Source: a virus
Length of the DNA: 64,000 nt
Strand: one strand, 5' to 3'
Virus record (IMG/VR): IMGVR_UViG_3300031952_000010
Span: 1-64,000 of that record
Within the stretch, counting starts at the first letter, position 1; each line of letters starts with the position of its first letter. Of the stretch, positions 29,893-62,551 are shown piece after piece. The translations under genes and the position numbers were made by a program. The notes beneath the pieces were generated by a model, which did not search any database, was not told the DNA's origin, and worked only from the letters and a program-made list of their open reading frames with translations.

Positions 29893-29959
29893 AAACATAA
29901 ATACGCAAAAAAATAGTAATTATTTGACTTTTACTATTTTAAGAATATATTTATTTCCA

Positions 29960-30040
29960 ATGATACGAAACAGAAAAAAACGAAACTATGAAAACATTAT
30001 AATAAACGGTATTACCGTTAACAATCCCATCATTAATTGA
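29960..30040 (+). CDS. Asn-rich leader peptide (26 aa, 7 Asn)
   Basis: MIRNRKKRNYENIIINGITVNNPIIN; overlaps a terminator upstream of the AsnRS-like gene. Confidence 0.65.
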   Translation: MIRNRKKRNYENIIINGITVNNPIIN

Positions 30041-30053
30041 TGGGATTTTTTTT
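30023..30053 (+). terminator. attenuator terminator
   Basis: AATCCCATCA-ttaat-TGATGGGATT + T-run. Confidence 0.8.
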
Positions 30054-30094
30054 GCCCATACGTTAACAATAAATAAACATAAATAAAACAAAAA

Positions 30095-30922
30095 ATGAAG
30101 AACACAAAAAGTTACAATGAATTAGTACAAAAGATGAGAGGATTTTTCCTTGATAAAGGTTTTATAGAGGTACCAACCCAATCTAGATTATCAATATTAG
30201 CGGCATGTGAGAACCCACATTCAATCGCTACTTTCAACTATAATGGGGAGATTTGGCCTTTACCACAGACAGGTCAGATGTGGTTGGAGTATGAGTTACT
30301 TAAGAACCCTGAATGGGAAGGAGTATTCTGTATTTCAACATCTTATAGACAAGAAAAGAACCCAATCCATGGTAGACATGAATTAATATTCCCAATGTTT
30401 GAATTTGAATCTAAAGGTACGATGAAAGATATGGTGGAACTTGAATCAGAACTTTTGAATCACTTGGGATTTAACAAACCTGTTGAGGTAAAATATGATG
30501 ATGTTTGTGAGGAATATGGAAATGTTTCAATTTTAGAGGACGAGCATGAATCGAGAATGTGGGAAGAAAAAGGTTCGGTGATATCACTTCAAAATTTTCC
30601 ATTAAGAACAAACCCATTTTGGAACATGAAACATAATGAAAATAGTGTCTTTAATAAAGTGGATGTAATTCTTTACGGGCAAGAAACAATTGGAAGTGCG
30701 GAAAGAAGTTGTGACCCTGAAGAGATGAAACATAATTTCTACACGATTGAAGGTGGCGGTTATTCCGCCAAGTTGTTTGAACTATTTGGTAAAGATAGAG
30801 TTGAGAAAGAACTTGAAGAATTCTTATCTTTGGATTTCTTCCCAAGATTTGGTGCGGGTATTGGTTTAACAAGATTGTCAAGGGCTTGGAATTTAAATCA
30901 AGTTGAATTGGAATTTATTTAA
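30095..30922 (+). CDS. class II aaRS catalytic-core protein (Asp/Asn type, no anticodon domain); likely AsnRS-derived asparagine synthetase
   Basis: GFIEVPT motif 1, YRQE...RH..F.MFEFE motif 2, GAGIGLTRL motif 3; 275 aa. Confidence 0.75.
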   Translation: MKNTKSYNELVQKMRGFFLDKGFIEVPTQSRLSILAACENPHSIATFNYNGEIWPLPQTGQMWLEYELLKNPEWEGVFCISTSYRQEKNPIHGRHELIFPMFEFESKGTMKDMVELESELLNHLGFNKPVEVKYDDVCEEYGNVSILEDEHESRMWEEKGSVISLQNFPLRTNPFWNMKHNENSVFNKVDVILYGQETIGSAERSCDPEEMKHNFYTIEGGGYSAKLFELFGKDRVEKELEEFLSLDFFPRFGAGIGLTRLSRAWNLNQVELEFI

Positions 30923-54651: not shown

Positions 54652-54771
54652 ATGAAAACTAATAAACAACATATGGTCATTAACGTGAAATCGCAATTTA
54701 GTAATTGCTGGTATCCGCGTATTTCGCATACAAGTTCAGTTAGTTTATTAAGTGATATAATTTTTGAATAA
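54652..54771 (+). CDS. leader peptide 1 (39 aa) of tRNA array 1
   Basis: MKTNKQHMVINVKSQFSNCWYPRISHTSSVSLLSDIIFE; A-rich upstream region. Confidence 0.8.
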   Translation: MKTNKQHMVINVKSQFSNCWYPRISHTSSVSLLSDIIFE

Positions 54772-54869: not shown

Positions 54870-54941
54870 CGGGGTGTAGTCTCGAGGAGAGACGCGTGTT
54901 TTGGGAACACGAGGCGGCAGGTTCGACTCCTGTCACCCCGA
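54870..54941 (+). tRNA. tRNA-Pro(UGG)
   Basis: CGTGT-ttTGGga-ACACG. Confidence 0.9.
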
Positions 54942-54947
54942 CTACAT

Positions 54948-55021
54948 TGTCACATAGCTCAGTTGGTTAGAGCGTTCGCCTGATACGCGAAAGGTCGATG
55001 GTTCGAGCCCATCTGTGACAA
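54948..55021 (+). tRNA. tRNA-Ile(GAU)
   Basis: TTCGC-ctGATac-GCGAA. Confidence 0.92.
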
Positions 55022-55027
55022 CTTAAT

Positions 55028-55101
55028 GACTTCGTAGCTCAGTTGGCTAGAGCACCTCACTTTTAATGAGGGAGTCCCGAGTTCGAGTCTCGGCGGGGTC
55101 A
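55028..55101 (+). tRNA. tRNA-Lys(UUU)
   Basis: CCTCA-ctTTTaa-TGAGG. Confidence 0.92.
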
Positions 55102-55107
55102 CAATAA

Positions 55108-55179
55108 GGTCGGTTGGCCGAGTGGTTTAGGCGATAGTCTGCAAAACTATCAACACAGGTTCGACTCCTGTACCGACCT
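55108..55179 (+). tRNA. tRNA-Cys(GCA)
   Basis: ATAGT-ctGCAaa-ACTAT. Confidence 0.92.
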
Positions 55180-55184
55180 CAAAT

Positions 55185-55257
55185 ACGTCTGTAGCTCAGT
55201 TGGTAGAGCATTGGTCTCCAAAACCAAGTGTCGGTGGTTCGAATCCATCCAGGCGTG
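55185..55257 (+). tRNA. tRNA-Trp(CCA)
   Basis: TTGGT-ctCCAaa-ACCAA. Confidence 0.92.
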
Positions 55258-55264
55258 CTAAAAT

Positions 55265-55350
55265 TGACGGGTTCGCGTAGTTGGCCGAACGCACCAGACT
55301 GTTAATCTGGCGAGACTTCTCCACCGTGGGTTCGAATCCCACCCCGTCAG
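55265..55350 (+). tRNA. tRNA-Asn(GUU) with long variable arm
   Basis: CCAGA-ctGTTaa-TCTGG; G73. Confidence 0.85.
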
Positions 55351-55399
55351 CAAACATTTACGAACTTTCTAATATTTATTAATATAAAATGTTAATATT

Positions 55400-55957
55400 A
55401 TGGAAAGGTATTCGGAAAAAATAATTACCTTAAGGAAAGAAGGTAAAACCTATAAAGAAATTAAAAACATTATAGGGTGTGCAATGTCAACAATATCGTA
55501 TCATTGTACATTAAATGGTTTAGGGGATAATAACCAAAAGGTAACTGAGAACGAAATCATCGAACTTCAAAAAATGTATGACGAATTTGGTTCACTTAAA
55601 AAAGTTGCTAAAATAACGGGAAGGGCTTTTGATACCGTTCAAAAATATGTTAAGACAAAACAAAAAGTTAAAACTGTAACATCTTCTGAATCAGTTATTT
55701 TATGGAGAAAAAGGACTAAAATTAAATTGATTGAATATAAAGGAGGTAAATGTGAAATTTGTGGATATGATAAATGTAATAGAGCCTTACAATTTCATCA
55801 TAAAAATCCATTAGAAAAGGATTTTTCAATATCGGGTAGAAGTTTATCATTTGACAGATTAAAAGACGAGGTTGATAAATGTATGTTAGTTTGTTCTAAT
55901 TGTCATTGTGAAATACACGATAATTTAATAACGATAAATAGGTTGATTAGGGAATGA
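55400..55957 (+). CDS. HTH + HNH homing endonuclease
   Basis: N-terminal HTH-like segments; CEICGY...LQFHH...CSNCHCEIH. Confidence 0.85.
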   Translation: MERYSEKIITLRKEGKTYKEIKNIIGCAMSTISYHCTLNGLGDNNQKVTENEIIELQKMYDEFGSLKKVAKITGRAFDTVQKYVKTKQKVKTVTSSESVILWRKRTKIKLIEYKGGKCEICGYDKCNRALQFHHKNPLEKDFSISGRSLSFDRLKDEVDKCMLVCSNCHCEIHDNLITINRLIRE

Positions 55958-56077
55958 TTGAACTGATAGTTCGAGAGTGAATACTGACTAGTACAATCGG
56001 AGTTTGCAGGTATTCACCCGAGTAATGCTAATCGTAAAAACAGATGTCCACTGAACCATCTTCTGTTTTCCTAAATT

Positions 56078-56158
56078 GGGAGTATTGAGCAACGGTTGCT
56101 CAGCGGTCTGTAAAACCGTCGCCATTTGGCATTGCAGGTTCGAATCCCGCTACTCCCA
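56078..56158 (+). tRNA. tRNA-Tyr(GUA)
   Basis: GCGGT-ctGTAaa-ACCGT; long variable arm. Confidence 0.9.
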
Positions 56159-56212
56159 CAATAAAAAAAGGGGAATAACTTCCCCTCTTTTCTTTAATTT
56201 GGTTGTTATTAA

Positions 56213-56377
56213 TTATTTTTTTTTAGAAACAATTGACCACACACCACCTGCAAGTGTAACCGCTGCTCCGATAAGTTCTTGTACTGATGAATCAGTTGCA
56301 AGACCTTTCATAATCAGGATACCACCTACGAAAGTAAGTGTGTGTCTAACGATACCTAGGATTTGTTCTTTAGTCAT
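56213..56377 (-). CDS. small two-TM holin-like protein (54 aa)
   Basis: MTKEQILGIVRHTLTFVGGILIMKG...GGVWSIVSKKK, read manually. Confidence 0.7.
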   Translation of the reverse strand: MTKEQILGIVRHTLTFVGGILIMKGLATDSSVQELIGAAVTLAGGVWSIVSKKK

Positions 56378-56433
56378 TTTAATGTTGATTAAAGGTTTAT
56401 GCCAGTCTATAAGTATCGGAGAAATAGGTAAAC

Positions 56434-56504
56434 TGTCCTTTGGTCTAATGGCAGGACACGTGGTTTTGGTCCACGCGGTGGAGGTTCGAATCCTTCAGGG
56501 ACAA
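56434..56504 (+). tRNA. tRNA-Gln(UUG)
   Basis: CGTGG-ttTTGgt-CCACG. Confidence 0.92.
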
Positions 56505-56557
56505 CAAGGGGTTCGGGGGAAACCCAATAGTGGGTGATGAGCCCACATCCTCCAAAT

Positions 56558-56626
56558 ACCGAATGGTCTGGTGACCGAAAATGGCTCATATCCGTTTTTA
56601 GAGTGGTTCGAAACCATTATTCGGTA
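56558..56626 (+). tRNA. atypical tRNA with CAU anticodon (minimal D-arm)
   Basis: ACCGAAT/ATTCGGT acceptor; AATGG-ctCATat-CCGTT. Confidence 0.6.
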
Positions 56627-56634
56627 CTTTAAAC

Positions 56635-56707
56635 AGTTCCTTAGCTCAGTTGGGAGAGCGCTTGTTTTACATGCAAGATGTCGTAGGTTCGAATCCTACA
56701 GGAACTA
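56635..56707 (+). tRNA. tRNA-Val(UAC)
   Basis: CTTGT-ttTACat-GCAAG. Confidence 0.92.
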
Positions 56708-57069
56708 CAAAAAATGTTTGGAGAATTAAATAATTTGCCGTACATTTGTAATATAGAAGTAAGGGGGGTAGGTAGTTAGTGGGTTGGTGACCTACTCCCC
56801 TGACGAAAGAGTTCTTTGAATAAAATGTTGGTGGATGGTAAGAAACGGTAAACTCGTAAAGTGCATTAACCTGTTGATATGAAATGGTGAAACGAGAGTC
56901 CATATCAGCTACTCATCACAATAAAAATATTGATAATGGTTTTCCCCATTCAACGAAGGTCGACTCTTCAGAATGGAATCGGAATTCATCACCCTTTGCT
57001 GAGGCCTCATTAAAACTCAGGAAGCAATTAAGATTGGAGCGAGACGGGTACTCCATCATTATTATACTT

Positions 57070-57142
57070 GGAACGGTAGCTCAGTTGGTAGAGCACTTGA
57101 TTGAAGCTCAAGGTGTCGGCGGTTCGAACCCGTCTCGTTCCA
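57070..57142 (+). tRNA. tRNA-Phe(GAA)
   Basis: CTTGA-ttGAAgc-TCAAG. Confidence 0.92.
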
Positions 57143-57216
57143 CGGAGTCCTGAAATAACAGGATGCCCCCACTCCCATATGGCAGCCAGTCCATTAAGCT
57201 GGTGAAGGGGGTAAAT

Positions 57217-57321
57217 AGTCAAGTGGACGTAATGCGGGATGGTCCCAAGTCCCCAACTCTAACGAGGTAAGGTAGTCTAATCCGTCTTGAACGGTATTCG
57301 GTTCGAGTCCGACCTTGATTA
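57217..57321 (+). ncRNA. tRNA-like RNA with acceptor and T arms but no canonical anticodon arm
   Basis: AGTCAAG/CTTGATT; TTCGG-TTCGAGT-CCGAC. Confidence 0.55.
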
Positions 57322-57326
57322 CAAAT

Positions 57327-57405
57327 TGCGATAATGGTGTAGGGTCGTTCTCATGAGACGATTTGGTAGATATACCCCTGTGAGGTTCGAGTCCTCAAAT
57401 CGCAA
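57327..57405 (+). tRNA. atypical CAU tRNA-like (degenerate D-arm, long variable arm)
   Basis: TCGTT-ctCATga-GACGA; TGAGG-TTCGAGT-CCTCA. Confidence 0.55.
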
Positions 57406-57415
57406 CAAATTATAT

Positions 57416-57489
57416 GGTGACTATAGCTCAGTTGGCAGAGCAAAGGTTTGTGGTACCTTGTGCCATGGGTTCGATTCCCATTAGTCACC
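57416..57489 (+). tRNA. tRNA-His(GUG)
   Basis: AAGGT-ttGTGgt-ACCTT; G-1/C73. Confidence 0.92.
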
Positions 57490-57589
57490 CAAATAGGTTG
57501 GGGTCCCTTGTAGTAACGGATTGAACTATAGTAAGTAAACTACAAGTATCTAGTAAGAAGTCACAGATGGGTTCGTGACGACCTAAATT

Positions 57590-57674
57590 GGAGGAATGGC
57601 AGAGTGGTCTATCGCACTTGTCTTGAAAACAAGCGTACCGAAAGGTACCGTAGGTTCGAATCCTACTTCCTCCG
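57590..57674 (+). tRNA. tRNA-Ser(UGA)
   Basis: CTTGT-ctTGAaa-ACAAG; long variable arm. Confidence 0.93.
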
Positions 57675-57697
57675 CAAAACAATTAGAAAAAAAACAT

Positions 57698-57901
57698 ATG
57701 ACAGACAAGTTAAAAGAGTTGTTAGAGACATCTCAAATTGGGGAACCTGAAATCGTTGATTTAATTCATTCGTATTATAAATTAGTGACCGCTGAATTAT
57801 TCACACAAGAAGAATTTGATACCGTATTAGAAAGATTAGGTATTACACAAAACGGGAACGTTTTTATTTTCAACGAGAACATAACTTATACTTTTAACTA
57901 A
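57698..57901 (+). CDS. hypothetical protein within the tRNA array
   Basis: [13 protein letters not shown]...; 3' part of the tracked ORF. Confidence 0.6.
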
Positions 57902-57904
57902 AAT

Positions 57905-57976
57905 AGTTCCTTGGTGTAATGGATAGCACTAAACACTACGGATGTTTCAGTGAGGGTTCGAGTCCTTCAGGGACTA
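57905..57976 (+). tRNA. tRNA-Arg(ACG)
   Basis: AAACA-ctACGga-TGTTT. Confidence 0.92.
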
Positions 57977-57981
57977 CTATT

Positions 57982-58066
57982 GGAAGATTGGCAGAGTGGT
58001 AATGCGGCGGTTTGCTAAACCGTAGACCTCGAAAGGGGTCCACAGGTTCGAATCCTGTATCTTCCG
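57982..58066 (+). tRNA. tRNA-Ser(GCU)
   Basis: GCGGT-ttGCTaa-ACCGT; long variable arm. Confidence 0.93.
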
Positions 58067-58111
58067 CTTATTTATAATTTTATACTATTTATTATCGAAT
58101 AATATGATATC

Positions 58112-59927: not shown

Positions 59928-60057
59928 ACAACAAATATAACGCTCTTATTTGACTAAAACAAATTTTTTTATTATTTTCTTTCTAAAAATATTTTTTAAA
60001 AAGTTTTGGCAGTCTCAAAATTTATTGTATCTTTGTATTCACAAAAACGATATAACT

Positions 60058-60523: not shown

Positions 60524-60554
60524 TTTGACTTTTTATGAAAGTCGTATATATTTA
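60524..60554 (+). promoter_or_regulatory. promoter candidate for leader 2
   Basis: TTTG-N19-TATATTTA. Confidence 0.55.
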
Positions 60555-60577
60555 ATAGAAAATACATAATACTGCAA

Positions 60578-60649
60578 ATGAAAAATTTAAATATCATACT
60601 ATTAGGCGGGACTGAGGCGGATACGTTAACTCGGACGGCGATGGTATGA
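60578..60649 (+). CDS. leader peptide 2 (23 aa) of tRNA array 2
   Basis: MKNLNIILLGGTEADTLTRTAMV with many G/C-ending codons. Confidence 0.8.
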   Translation: MKNLNIILLGGTEADTLTRTAMV

Positions 60650-60671
60650 TGTTTTGTCAACAATAACAATC

Positions 60672-60703
60672 AGAACCCATCTCCAAAAAAGATGGGTTTT
60701 TTT
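60672..60703 (+). terminator. attenuator terminator 2
   Basis: AACCCATCT-ccaaaaa-AGATGGGTT + T-run. Confidence 0.85.
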
Positions 60704-60756
60704 ATGTCTAAAAGTTGGTAATTAAATAAATTGTTGTATCTTTGTGAAACAATAAA

Positions 60757-60784
60757 GGGGATGAAACCCCGAGTTCTTTGACAT
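60757..60784 (+). promoter_or_regulatory. boxB-like hairpin + boxA-like element
   Basis: GGGG-atgaaa-CCCC then GAGTTCTTTGACAT. Confidence 0.65.
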
Positions 60785-60806
60785 GTTGGTTTGAAAAAAA
60801 AATTAA

Positions 60807-60878
60807 GGTCTATTCGTTCATCGGCTAGGATGCTACCCTGTCACGGTAGTGAGGAGGGTTCGATTCCCTCATGGACCG
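60807..60878 (+). tRNA. tRNA-Asp(GUC)
   Basis: CTACC-ctGTCac-GGTAG. Confidence 0.92.
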
Positions 60879-60889
60879 CAAACAATAAG

Positions 60890-60965
60890 GGGGGTGCATG
60901 TACCAAGGCATTGGCGATGTCGATTTGCAATCAACGTGAGGTGGGTTCGATTCCCATCATCTCCA
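60890..60965 (+). tRNA. tRNA-Ala(UGC)
   Basis: ttTGCaa loop; G3:U70 identity pair; atypical D-arm. Confidence 0.8.
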
Positions 60966-60978
60966 CACAAAAATATAT

Positions 60979-61050
60979 CGTGGGATAGAGCAGTGGTAGC
61001 TCGCAAGGCTCATAACCTTGAGGTCGGGGGTTCGAATCCCTCTCCCGCAA
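60979..61050 (+). tRNA. tRNA-Met(CAU), initiator-like
   Basis: C1xA72 mismatch; CAAGG-ctCATaa-CCTTG. Confidence 0.88.
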
Positions 61051-61059
61051 CTAATACAT

Positions 61060-61133
61060 CGTGGGTTAGACTGGAGGTGGTTCCAGCTTGGTCTCATAAG
61101 CCAAAGACGGGGGTTCGAGTCCCTCACCCGCAA
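61060..61133 (+). tRNA. tRNA-Met(CAU), second copy with C1xA72
   Basis: TTGGT-ctCATaa-GCCAA. Confidence 0.8.
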
Positions 61134-61211
61134 CAAATGTGTCTCAATTCCCTGAAGAAATTCAAAGTTGAGGTCTCGGTAGACAGAACGCGTCTGATTC
61201 TACCCAAATAC

Positions 61212-61284
61212 GCGAATATCGTATAGTGGTTTATTACTCCATCCTTCCAAGTTGGAGACGACAGTTCGATTCTGTCTATTCGCT
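61212..61284 (+). tRNA. tRNA-Gly(UCC)
   Basis: ctTCCaa loop; U73. Confidence 0.9.
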
Positions 61285-61291
61285 CAAAAAT

Positions 61292-61372
61292 GCTTAAGTG
61301 GTGGAATGGTATACACGTATGTCTTAGGAACATATGTCTTATGACGTGAGGGTTCGAGTCCCTCCTTAAGTA
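61292..61372 (+). tRNA. tRNA-Leu(UAG)
   Basis: TATGT-ctTAGga-ACATA. Confidence 0.92.
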
Positions 61373-61377
61373 CAAAA

Positions 61378-61937
61378 CCAAGGTAATGTCAGTAGGATGA
61401 GGCCGCAATCGGATTCCTTTGAACAACGCGTGAGGGGCGGCTTTCACGATGTGGCTGATAACCCGAGGTTTTAAGACCCCACGAGTAACGGAGATATCCG
61501 ACCGTTATGGAGTGTGAACCTGACTTGAAGGCTTCAAGGCTATGGGGGAGGCAACACAAACAAACACGGATTCCCCATTATGGATTAAGGGGGTAAGGGG
61601 CTTTAATTAGTCGTAATACAATCCACAAGTTGTAAGAACACTGAACAATCTTACAATACACACTCTGACTTCCGAGTGAGACTCACCACGTAACTTTGGG
61701 GGTAGGGTGAAGATGTTCTGAGGATAACACTGAACGCTGAACAGTAAAAACCATGACGCATTTGATTGGTAGAATAGGTTAAGACGGAGTGTGAAAGTAG
61801 AAACCCCCGATGGATGGTTACTAAGCTCTTTAACTCAAAAGGGATAGTCGGGAGGGATATATAAGCTTAAGGGAAACTATAAGTAAAAACTAGGTCAGTT
61901 CCGATTTAACCCCTATCGGTACGAGTGTCTGACCTTA
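61378..61937 (+). ncRNA. large structured ncRNA candidate (~560 nt)
   Basis: GC-elevated spacer between tRNAs with no tracked + strand ORF and many stems. Confidence 0.65.
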
Positions 61938-61939
61938 AT

Positions 61940-62012
61940 GCCTCCTTAGCTCAGTTGGCAGAGCACTTGTTTTGTAAACAAGATGTCGTTGGTTCGAATC
62001 CGACAGGAGGCT
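61940..62012 (+). tRNA. tRNA-Thr(UGU)
   Basis: CTTGT-ttTGTaa-ACAAG. Confidence 0.92.
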
Positions 62013-62038
62013 CAATGAGTAAGAGATACTCATCAAAT

Positions 62039-62124
62039 GCTCGGGTGGTGTAATTGGTAGCCACGCAAGACTTAAAATCTTGTGGACTGTAAGGTCCGTG
62101 CGGGTTCGATTCCCGCCCCGAGTA
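62039..62124 (+). tRNA. tRNA-Leu(UAA)
   Basis: CAAGA-ctTAAaa-TCTTG. Confidence 0.93.
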
Positions 62125-62126
62125 CT

Positions 62127-62324
62127 AAAACAAATCTTACATAAGACGGATTAGCACCGTTGAAAGGAACCTTGGCTTCACCGCGGAGTAATTACCGTAA
62201 CAGAAGTTCTAAATGCCCCAAGGTACTATGTAATGGACCCTGCTCTGATGTGCACGTCAACAGGTGATGGGGAACAAACCATCGGTCAAATCTAAACCTA
62301 CGGTGAGCGTAGAAGATTTGTTTT
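62127..62324 (+). ncRNA. structured ncRNA candidate (~200 nt)
   Basis: 12-bp closing stem AAAACAAATCTT/AAGATTTGTTTT with internal stems. Confidence 0.6.
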
Positions 62325-62329
62325 TATTT

Positions 62330-62404
62330 GGTCCCATCGTCTAACGGTTAGGACATCAGGTTTTCATCCTGAAAATCGGGGTTCGATTCCCCGTGGGACT
62401 ACCA
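62330..62404 (+). tRNA. tRNA-Glu(UUC)
   Basis: TCAGG-ttTTCat-CCTGA; encoded CCA. Confidence 0.93.
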
Positions 62405-62425
62405 AATATTCTTCATTTATATAAA

Positions 62426-62499
62426 GGACTTGTAGCTCAGTTGGTTAGAGCACCGCACTCATAATGCGTAGGTCCATGGTTCGAGTCCATGCTGGTCCA
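62426..62499 (+). tRNA. tRNA with CAU anticodon, probably Ile2 (lysidine, reads AUA)
   Basis: GG-start, TAGCTCAGTTGGTTAGAGC D-arm, ctCATaa loop; identity inferred. Confidence 0.75.
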
Positions 62500-62551
62500 C
62501 TTTTTTCAAATTATACATTGCCAGTCCAAATTTTTTTTGTATATTTGTTAT

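Follow-up and report, generated by a model that had tools for sequence, protein, structure and literature searches.

A probable leader-peptide attenuator upstream of a tRNA gene array in a large freshwater phage of Bacteroidota

A short leader sequence, named here leader 2, precedes the second tRNA gene array (array 2) of a large freshwater phage of Bacteroidota. It is a real feature that is not accounted for by chance, and it probably acts as a ribosome-mediated (trp-type) transcription attenuator placed 5' of array 2, which senses decoding of the codons read by the array 2 tRNAs. This reading is carried by the observed anatomy of the leader, by its alternative folds and their conservation, by the correspondence between leader codons and array anticodons, and by the covariation of leaders and arrays across phages. 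The phage probably makes more array 2 tRNAs when the matching codons are decoded slowly. The quantitative role of leader 2 in this phage is tempered by a second promoter, P2.

Genome context, parts and predicted folds of leader 2

The window (the whole stretch of DNA analysed, 64,000 nucleotides, with a G+C content of 32%) belongs to an IMG/VR phage contig of 91.5 kb whose completeness is estimated at ~31%, which gives a phage genome of roughly 300 kb. Sequence features point to a host among the Bacteroidota, as does the distribution of the boxA motif described below. There are 27 tRNA genes in the window: a lone tRNA-Arg(UCU), the 16 genes of array 1 and the 10 genes of array 2. The latter are ordered Asp-GUC, Ala-UGC, CAU, CAU, Gly-UCC, Leu-UAG, Thr-UGU, Leu-UAA, Glu-UUC and CAU. 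The elements referred to in the text are the following.

54652-54771: leader 1
54870-58067: tRNA array 1, 16 genes
60524-60554, + strand: promoter P1 of the leader transcript, TTTGAC-N17-TATATTTA
60578-60649, + strand: leader ORF, 23 codons plus TGA, peptide MKNLNIILLGGTEADTLTRTAMV
60589-60603, + strand: region 1, codons AAT ATC ATA CTA TT, within codons 4-9, as defined by the minimum-energy fold
60637-60654, + strand: region 2, with the stop codon at 60647-60649, pairing with region 1 or with the 5' arm of the terminator
60672-60703, + strand: intrinsic terminator (regions 3 and 4), stem AGAACCCATCT/AGATGGGTTTT, loop CCAAAAA, then a U-run
60677-60684, + strand: terminator strand common to the antiterminator, CCATCTCC
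60715-60744, + strand: second promoter P2, TTG-N18-TATCTTTG, between terminator and boxA
60758-60770, + strand: small G+C hairpin GGGGATGAAACCCC, directly 5' of boxA, which may be boxB-like
60773-60790, + strand: putative boxA, GTTCTTTGACATGTTGGT
60807-62500, + strand: tRNA array 2, 10 genes plus two embedded non-tRNA RNAs

The leader ORF is present with the peptide and codons given in a preliminary description of this DNA, and the strong intrinsic terminator reported there is confirmed, with an 11-bp stem (60672-60700) that leads into a T-run. The proposed control codons of the ORF, codons 5-17, are AAT ATC ATA CTA TTA GGC GGG ACT GAG GCG GAT ACG TTA.

Two promoters of the Bacteroidota -33/-7 type flank these elements. 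The general pattern TTG-N17-20-TAnnTTTG has 24 occurrences in the window, compared with 6.5 in shuffled sequence. P1 is a variant in which the final G is replaced by A; this exact variant is found in two copies in the 64-kb window (0.03 expected), at 29923 and 60524, both preceding short leader ORFs. The copy at 29923 lies upstream of a 26-codon Asn-rich ORF (7 Asn), MIRNRKKRNYENIIINGITVNNPIIN, which is directly 5' of a 275-amino-acid, asparagine-synthetase-like gene (30095-30922, + strand). At this locus (29923-30922, + strand) an Asn-sensing attenuator was proposed in the preliminary description.

P2 has a better fit to the consensus than P1 and conforms to the pattern of two gene promoters of the window, at 60006 and 62518. 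The earlier caveat that a second promoter follows the terminator is thus correct, and a homologous promoter is conserved in the nearest subfamily of relatives (L376 and L389). As P2 sits between terminator and boxA, array 2 can be transcribed without the attenuator. Judged from its position and sequence, P2 probably gives the array a basal input that bypasses the leader, with attenuation adding to this basal level. A further promoter-like sequence, TTG-N20-TACATTTG, is found inside array 1 between tRNA-Val and tRNA-Phe (56718-56748, + strand) and may be an internal promoter bypassing leader 1.

The segment 60560-60710 folds with -41.7 kcal/mol and is far more structured than its shuffles (z = -4.98). 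Folding of sub-segments predicts three mutually exclusive helices. The 1:2 hairpin joins 60589-60603 with about 60638-60654 (-26.4 kcal/mol); it was missed in the preliminary description. In the minimum-energy fold the partner of region 1 is 60640-60654 (GATGGTATGATGTTT), which includes the stop codon. Region 1 is in this model the 5' strand of a protector hairpin, which is a probable pause hairpin as well. The 2:3 helix (60634-60688) reaches -13.4 kcal/mol when the 3' arm of the terminator is withheld, and the 3:4 helix, which is the terminator, has -13.6 kcal/mol. The conserved core of 2:3 is formed by GGCGATGG (60637-60644) and CCATCTCC (60677-60684); it has one C.U mismatch in this window, a point against the attenuator reading. 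The antiterminator proposed earlier folds as described; the inner pairings TGAT/ATCA, GTT/AAC and TTG/CAA are specific to the window and not kept in relatives.

The predicted layout of leader 2 is that of a complete trp-type attenuator with three hairpins. The criteria for such a device are met by a short ORF whose start codon is near the promoter and which lies 5' of the controlled genes, by an intrinsic terminator between this ORF and array 2, by an antiterminator 5' strand at the ORF end that competes for the 5' arm of the terminator, by a protector 1:2 hairpin whose 5' strand is inside the regulatory codons, and by regulatory codons cognate to the supply that is controlled, which is here tRNA and not an amino acid.

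Contigs assembled from freshwater metatranscriptomes of two studies cover 60549-61026 and 60586-60782. They span the leader and bridge the terminator, and the first covers also the first tRNAs of array 2. Such contigs are compatible with read-through transcripts. The evidence is weak, since they carry no information on transcript ends, strand or levels and DNA carry-over is possible. The longer contig does not represent a clean P1 transcript, because it begins ~11 nt upstream of the predicted P1 start. The segment 58214-59718 is uncovered in four RNA runs, to which no evidential weight is given.

Two other RNAs appear to be embedded in array 2. A full-length match to the Rfam freshwater-1 RNA (RF02979, 84.2 bits, gathering score 72) is located at 62229-62290 (+ strand), flanked by tRNA-Leu(UAA) and tRNA-Glu, and is covered by RNA-library contigs. 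The ~560-nt spacer at 61374-61939 (+ strand), between tRNA-Leu(UAG) and tRNA-Thr, is ORF-poor and G+C-richer and has no Rfam match. Metatranscriptome contigs 61235-61855 and 61572-62032 span parts of the spacer, which may be a large structured RNA co-transcribed with array 2.

Leader codons and array anticodons in this phage

The match between leader and array was assessed against the codon usage of the phage itself, derived from its 46 long ORFs. Each of the seven non-CAU anticodons of array 2 has a cognate among codons 5-17 of leader 2 (GAT, GCG, GGG, CTA, ACG, TTA and GAG), and only 2 of the 14 anticodons of array 1 are covered there. Full coverage within 13 codons has a simulated probability of 1.1e-4, and within the whole ORF (22 codons) of 3.3e-3. 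Leader 1 behaves reciprocally: within its codons 2-26, array 1 is covered completely (14/14 anticodons) and array 2 not at all (0/7), a result not reached in any of 200000 simulations. The two leaders are therefore complementary, as had been suggested from inspection of the DNA, and the claim that leader 2 mirrors its own array is borne out both here and by the frame-specific match across phages presented below.

The correspondence is not perfect. The control-zone codons AAT, ATC, GGC and ACT have no strict decoder in array 2, which counts against the attenuator reading. The misfit codons CGG and GTA, codons 19 and 23, do not count against the model, because a ribosome located there would already cover region 2. 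The absence of a strict array 2 cognate for GGC and CGG was anticipated in the earlier description, and we agree with it.

Codon ATA probably lacks a strict array 2 decoder too, as far as the tRNA sequences allow a judgement. Its reading had been attributed to a tRNA-Ile2(CAU) of array 2, which is unproven. Relatives carry tRNA-Ile(UAU) in the array and this window has none. Similarity did not settle which of the five CAU tRNAs is tRNA-Ile2. The CAU tRNA at 60979 is initiator-like (C1xA72), and those at 61060 and 62426 have orthologues that adjoin tRNA-Ile(UAU) in relatives. The best candidate for tRNA-Ile2, by anticodon loop and acceptor stem, belongs to array 1:

56558-56627, + strand: 70-nt tRNA(CAU), an ARAGORN call not reported by the Rfam tRNA model

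This putative tRNA has a reduced D-arm, and its anticodon loop (CUCAUAU) and acceptor stem resemble those of the Ile(UAU) tRNAs of relatives. The ATA codon is in any case fixed by the region-1 stem.

Codons ending in G or C are enriched in leader 2 (9 against 4.4 expected from synonymous usage, P = 0.018), and ACG, GGC, GGG, CGG and CTA are rare codons in this phage. The enrichment pointed out previously is thus confirmed; that these codons sensitise the ribosome to stalling remains an inference only. Each tRNA is represented by one or two codons with no run, so that sensitivity to a mild shortage may be low.

These properties bear on the possibility that leader 2 is a ribosome-coupled attenuator reporting general translation capacity, or the coupling of transcription with translation, in which the codon match is secondary. 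Sampling of each tRNA just once or twice would suit such a device, as would rare G/C-ending codons that slow decoding generally and a strong 1:2 hairpin by which an untranslated leader would terminate by default. Correspondence of leader with array would not be required of a general sensor, yet it covaries with array content from phage to phage and also between arrays 1 and 2 of this phage. We consider a general sensor unlikely and retain the attenuator responding to the array 2 codons as the preferred reading.

Conservation of the leader and covariation with its array across phages

A pattern scan yielded 36 loci, of which 32 are members of the leader-2 family, with 13 peptide variants. In every family member a P1 promoter, conserved across the family, is followed by a leader ORF (23-24 codons) that stops inside region 2, and then by a terminator and a boxA. 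No leader-2 relatives were found in GenBank phage records. Among 80 loci compared via the upstream gene, only L002 and L003 keep leader 2 at that position; their contigs are near-identical, with one synonymous change, and too close to be informative.

Twenty-four distinct family sequences were aligned (alignment A1). The segments coding for MKNL(N/H)II and (E/K/V)MV, which correspond to regions 1 and 2, are constant, and there is free variation in the central residues of the peptide. Pairing amounts to 97.9% in the terminator, where both partners have changed in three pairs. All 24 sequences preserve the 12-bp core of 1:2. For 2:3 the paired fraction is 94%, compared with 40-63% for a slid partner. 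In L131 a double change (GAAGATGG/CCATCTTC) has its 3' member, the changed base of the terminator arm, in the terminator loop; it is explained only by 2:3 pairing. The earlier proposal of an antiterminator competing with the terminator thereby gains support from a conserved pairing with a compensatory change. The family is too conserved for many double changes to be found in 1:2 and 2:3, so support for these helices comes mostly from conservation relative to the slid controls and from comparison between families.

Variation within the family follows the arrays in part. AGA at codon 10 occurs only in variants of the SLRG/TLRG type. The three loci with AGA and readable arrays (L430, L441 and L445) all have tRNA-Arg(UCU); L451 has AGA and its array is not readable. 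tRNA-Arg(UCU) was not seen in variants without AGA at codon 10. In L376 there is Phe in the leader and tRNA-Phe in the array. Against the model, the Ala codons of the family are constant though most arrays show no tRNA-Ala.

A second scan with a scripted pipeline gave 58 sites at which a boxA leads into a tRNA, 30 of them with a terminator at most 45 nt upstream. All 30 have an ATG-initiated ORF of 27-42 codons that ends 20-47 nt before the terminator; shuffled sequence yields such an ORF ~14% of the time. These leaders are diverse, and their composition follows that of the arrays. The L378 leader is rich in D, E, V, L, A and W and precedes an Asp/Glu/Val/Leu/Ala/Trp array. The L360 leader (..LPLHSTLLSSSRRPITP..) is followed by Ser, Thr, Ser, Leu, Arg, His, Pro, Met and Leu tRNAs, and the L090 leader (TTGTTYQPKQYTQGGKP) by Pro, Gln, Tyr, Thr, Gly and Lys tRNAs. 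The leader of L371 contains all 17 amino acids of its own 17-tRNA array.

For 20 non-redundant pairs, the presence of amino acids in a leader predicts its own array with a Matthews correlation coefficient (MCC) of 0.54, against 0.03 for permuted pairs (z = 6.9, 0/20000), and the readable-codon fraction is 0.61 against 0.39 (z = 7.0). After collapse to 12 leader families the MCC is 0.535 against 0.012 permuted, with none of 100000 permutations as high. The match is confined to the ORF frame (frame 0), with an MCC of 0.55 as compared with -0.005 for frame +1 and -0.19 for frame +2 (P about 1e-6). Synonymous choice for Leu, Ser and Arg over all leaders gives a weak signal (61 of 78, against 54.7 expected), which counts against the model; the leader-array match is mainly one of decoder or amino acid.

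The position of the matching residues agrees with the expected control zone. They make up 74% of residues from codon 5 to region 2 (83% for complete arrays), against 53% in codons 2-4 and 57% from region 2 onward (P = 0.005). The 3' part of the ORF complements the 5' arm of its own terminator across families (Fisher P = 2e-12). In most cases the start of region 2 precedes the stop codon by 6-24 nt (extremes, 43 nt before and 4 nt after), and 20-36 nt separate that codon from the start of the terminator.

The frame dependence weighs also on the idea of an RNA-only switch, T-box-like or controlled by a protein, that binds tRNA or another factor directly, the ORF being incidental. Alternative terminator and antiterminator folds would suit a riboswitch equally. 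The match limited to the ORF frame, the conservation of the ORF and of its start and stop positions in all family members, and the lack of a specifier or T-box-like conserved loop in alignment A1 speak against it. No Rfam family reaches threshold on the leader, where hits are at chance level only: EF3314_EF3315 scores 22.3 bits on leader 2 (threshold 100), and Thr_leader is likewise sub-threshold on the terminator of leader 1 (24.4 against 55). An RNA-only switch is hardly tenable, and ribosome-mediated attenuation remains the preferred explanation.

Codon-matched leaders are found also in a cultured phage, Cellulophaga phage phi4:1_13 (KT962245.1), which has two of them, with terminators, inside its tRNA region:

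5710-5831 of L460: phi4:1 leader locus
6634-6810 of L460: phi4:1 leader locus

In the coordinates of KT962245.1 the leaders are at about 87065-87133 and 88025-88108. One of them is annotated as hypothetical protein Phi4113_075, and the locus lacks a boxA. Codons 4-14 of the leader MKIQRLHLQELEQPIISGGTGV are CAA CGT TTA CAT TTA CAA GAG CTA GAA CAG CCG, and what follows is exactly Pro, Glu, Gln, His, Leu-UAG, Leu-UAA and Arg-ACG. The second leader (..TKTGITVIDKTKGARAY.., in which AGA is present) precedes Ala, Lys, Ile, Gly, Met, Asp, Thr, Val, Arg-UCU, Met and Tyr. Arginine is therefore split between the two, CGT going with Arg-ACG and AGA with Arg-UCU.

In the window, the motif GTTCTTTGACATnTTGGT stands 5' of the first tRNA of both arrays (two occurrences, 0.04 expected). 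Exact matches to the 16-mer in bacterial genomes are mostly in Bacteroidota, and in ~45 of 121 bacterial matches, whose rRNA context was determined by scripted probe matching, its location is the 16S-23S spacer, 3' of tRNA-Ala and a short distance 5' of the 23S gene. This is the position of the spacer boxA in rrn operons, and the 16-mer is identified with it on that ground. In phage contigs the 16-mer is found 6-23 nt (mostly 6-11) 5' of a tRNA at 26 sites. A role as promoter was rejected: at some sites the motif is downstream of ordinary promoters (L112, L136 and this window) or between tRNAs, as expected of a transcribed boxA. An assignment as the boxA of the 16S leader was discarded too, since no 16S start was found downstream and the motif is in the 16S-23S spacer instead. 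The criteria for an rrn-type boxA, namely identity to the rrn boxA of the host, a transcribed position and presence before both arrays, are met. The sequence GTTCTTTGACAT preceding the tRNAs is accordingly classed by sequence as a host rrn-type boxA, a NusB/NusE loading site; binding of Nus factors is inferred.

In leader 1, in most members of the leader-2 family and in other families, boxA abuts the T-run of the terminator. There is no room for a promoter, so the array can be reached only by reading through the terminator. This speaks against a rival account, according to which the terminator merely closes a transcription unit located 5' of it, the ORF has arisen by chance or is an ordinary small gene, and array 2 is transcribed from P2 only. 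P2 is a good promoter match directly 5' of boxA and array 2, the terminator is strong, and array 1 may have an internal promoter as well, at 56718. Such an account leaves P1 without any other product. Moreover, it does not predict that leader content tracks array content in frame in 12 families or that the end of the ORF always complements the terminator arm, and the central part of the peptide lacks the conservation expected of a protein. Transcription from P2 alone, with no regulatory leader, is quite improbable, and the attenuator reading is kept.

Other elements occupy similar positions in some phages. In several leader-2 relatives (L167, L436, L438, L442 and L459) a promoter and a small protein-coding gene are inserted between boxA and the first tRNA, and the attenuated transcript would then carry also an mRNA. 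A conserved element of ~130 nt starting with ATAGGTTGATTGGGGAATGGTGAT is found directly 5' of tRNAs in the related phages L021 (5758-5896), L013, L029 and L025 (and L164). It is probably a structured RNA rather than a carrier of the short ORF that it contains, since its sequence changes look compensatory (GTGTGTATC/GGTACACAC).

Proposed mechanism and comparison with known systems

Transcription would start at P1, with a predicted start near 60560, and a ribosome would translate the 23-codon leader as RNA polymerase advances. If decoding is fast, the ribosome at the ORF end would cover region 2 (60637-60654), allowing the terminator to form and the transcript to end. A stall within codons 5-17 would cover or separate region 1 and leave region 2 free to pair with the 5' arm of the terminator. 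Formation of the antiterminator GGCGATGG/CCATCTCC would then permit read-through, loading of Nus factors at boxA and transcription of array 2. Without translation, the 1:2 and 3:4 hairpins would form and lead to termination. Since every non-CAU tRNA of array 2 has a cognate among codons 5-17, shortage of any one decoder would increase synthesis of the phage's own tRNA copies, an OR-type feedback. That the ORF is translated and that stalling is the signal are inferences, as are the direction and the magnitude of the response; direct evidence is lacking for translation, for stalling and for regulated read-through.

A broader interpretation, which we put forward tentatively as a possibility, is that these leaders are a widespread phage-encoded, multiplexed sensor of tRNA depletion, an OR-gated homeostatic counter-measure representing a new regulatory logic for tRNA genes in many Bacteroidota phages, cultivable Cellulophaga phages included. 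The tRNA block would be switched on when any matching host decoder becomes limiting, for example upon cleavage by a host anticodon nuclease or upon phage-induced turnover of host tRNAs.

The general view is that tRNA genes of bacteria and phages are controlled at their promoters and by processing, not by decoding of their own codons. A leader peptide that lists the tRNAs of its operon would, if the model is true, provide direct supply-and-demand feedback for tRNA. It would explain the timing and dosing of tRNA arrays in large phages and link these arrays to host defences that target tRNA. The leader sequence could label which tRNAs a phage treats as limiting, and natural multi-input attenuator parts would become available for Bacteroidota. 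Presence of the device in a cultured phage-host pair, phi4:1 and C. baltica, makes the idea directly testable.

No description of leader-peptide attenuation of tRNA genes was found in the literature, whose coverage was incomplete, so that absence is unproven. The T-box is similar in that tRNA status is sensed and a choice between terminator and antiterminator is made 5' of translation-related genes. It differs in that uncharged tRNA is bound directly and no ORF is needed, whereas the phage signal is proposed to be read by a translating ribosome. T-box criteria are not met in the phage leader, which shows no T-box features and no Rfam hit and whose signal is frame-dependent.

In rrn antitermination (boxA, NusB/NusE, rrnTAC) the likeness resides in the 16-nt motif, identical to the 16S-23S spacer boxA of many Bacteroidota. 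The phage boxA differs in its location, as it precedes tRNA arrays and lies just 3' of a proposed regulated intrinsic terminator. The pheM leader of E. coli pheST is an attenuator that controls a component of the translation machinery through decoding of cognate codons. Its target is an aminoacyl-tRNA synthetase gene and it responds to one amino acid; here the targets are tRNAs, of many species.

The closest resemblance is in layout to the enterobacterial attenuators trpL, hisL, thrL (Thr and Ile) and ilvGMEDA (Ile/Leu/Val). They share with the phage leaders a promoter-proximal short ORF, the 1:2, 2:3 and 3:4 hairpins, regulatory codons 5' of region 2, a stop codon within region 2 or adjacent to it, an intrinsic terminator further 3', and the sampling of several amino acids per leader. 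There is no sequence or Rfam relationship between the two groups. Phage leaders control tRNA genes and not biosynthetic enzymes, and they sample 7-17 decoders mostly once, in contrast to the enterobacterial runs of one or a few amino acids. They are moreover phage-borne, are followed by an rrn-type boxA and occur in Bacteroidota, whose mRNAs lack Shine-Dalgarno sequences. What appears new is thus an attenuator set on tRNA genes, carried by a phage, with a multiplexed barcode of 7-17 decoders and an rrn-type boxA; the mechanism itself is of the enterobacterial leader-peptide type.
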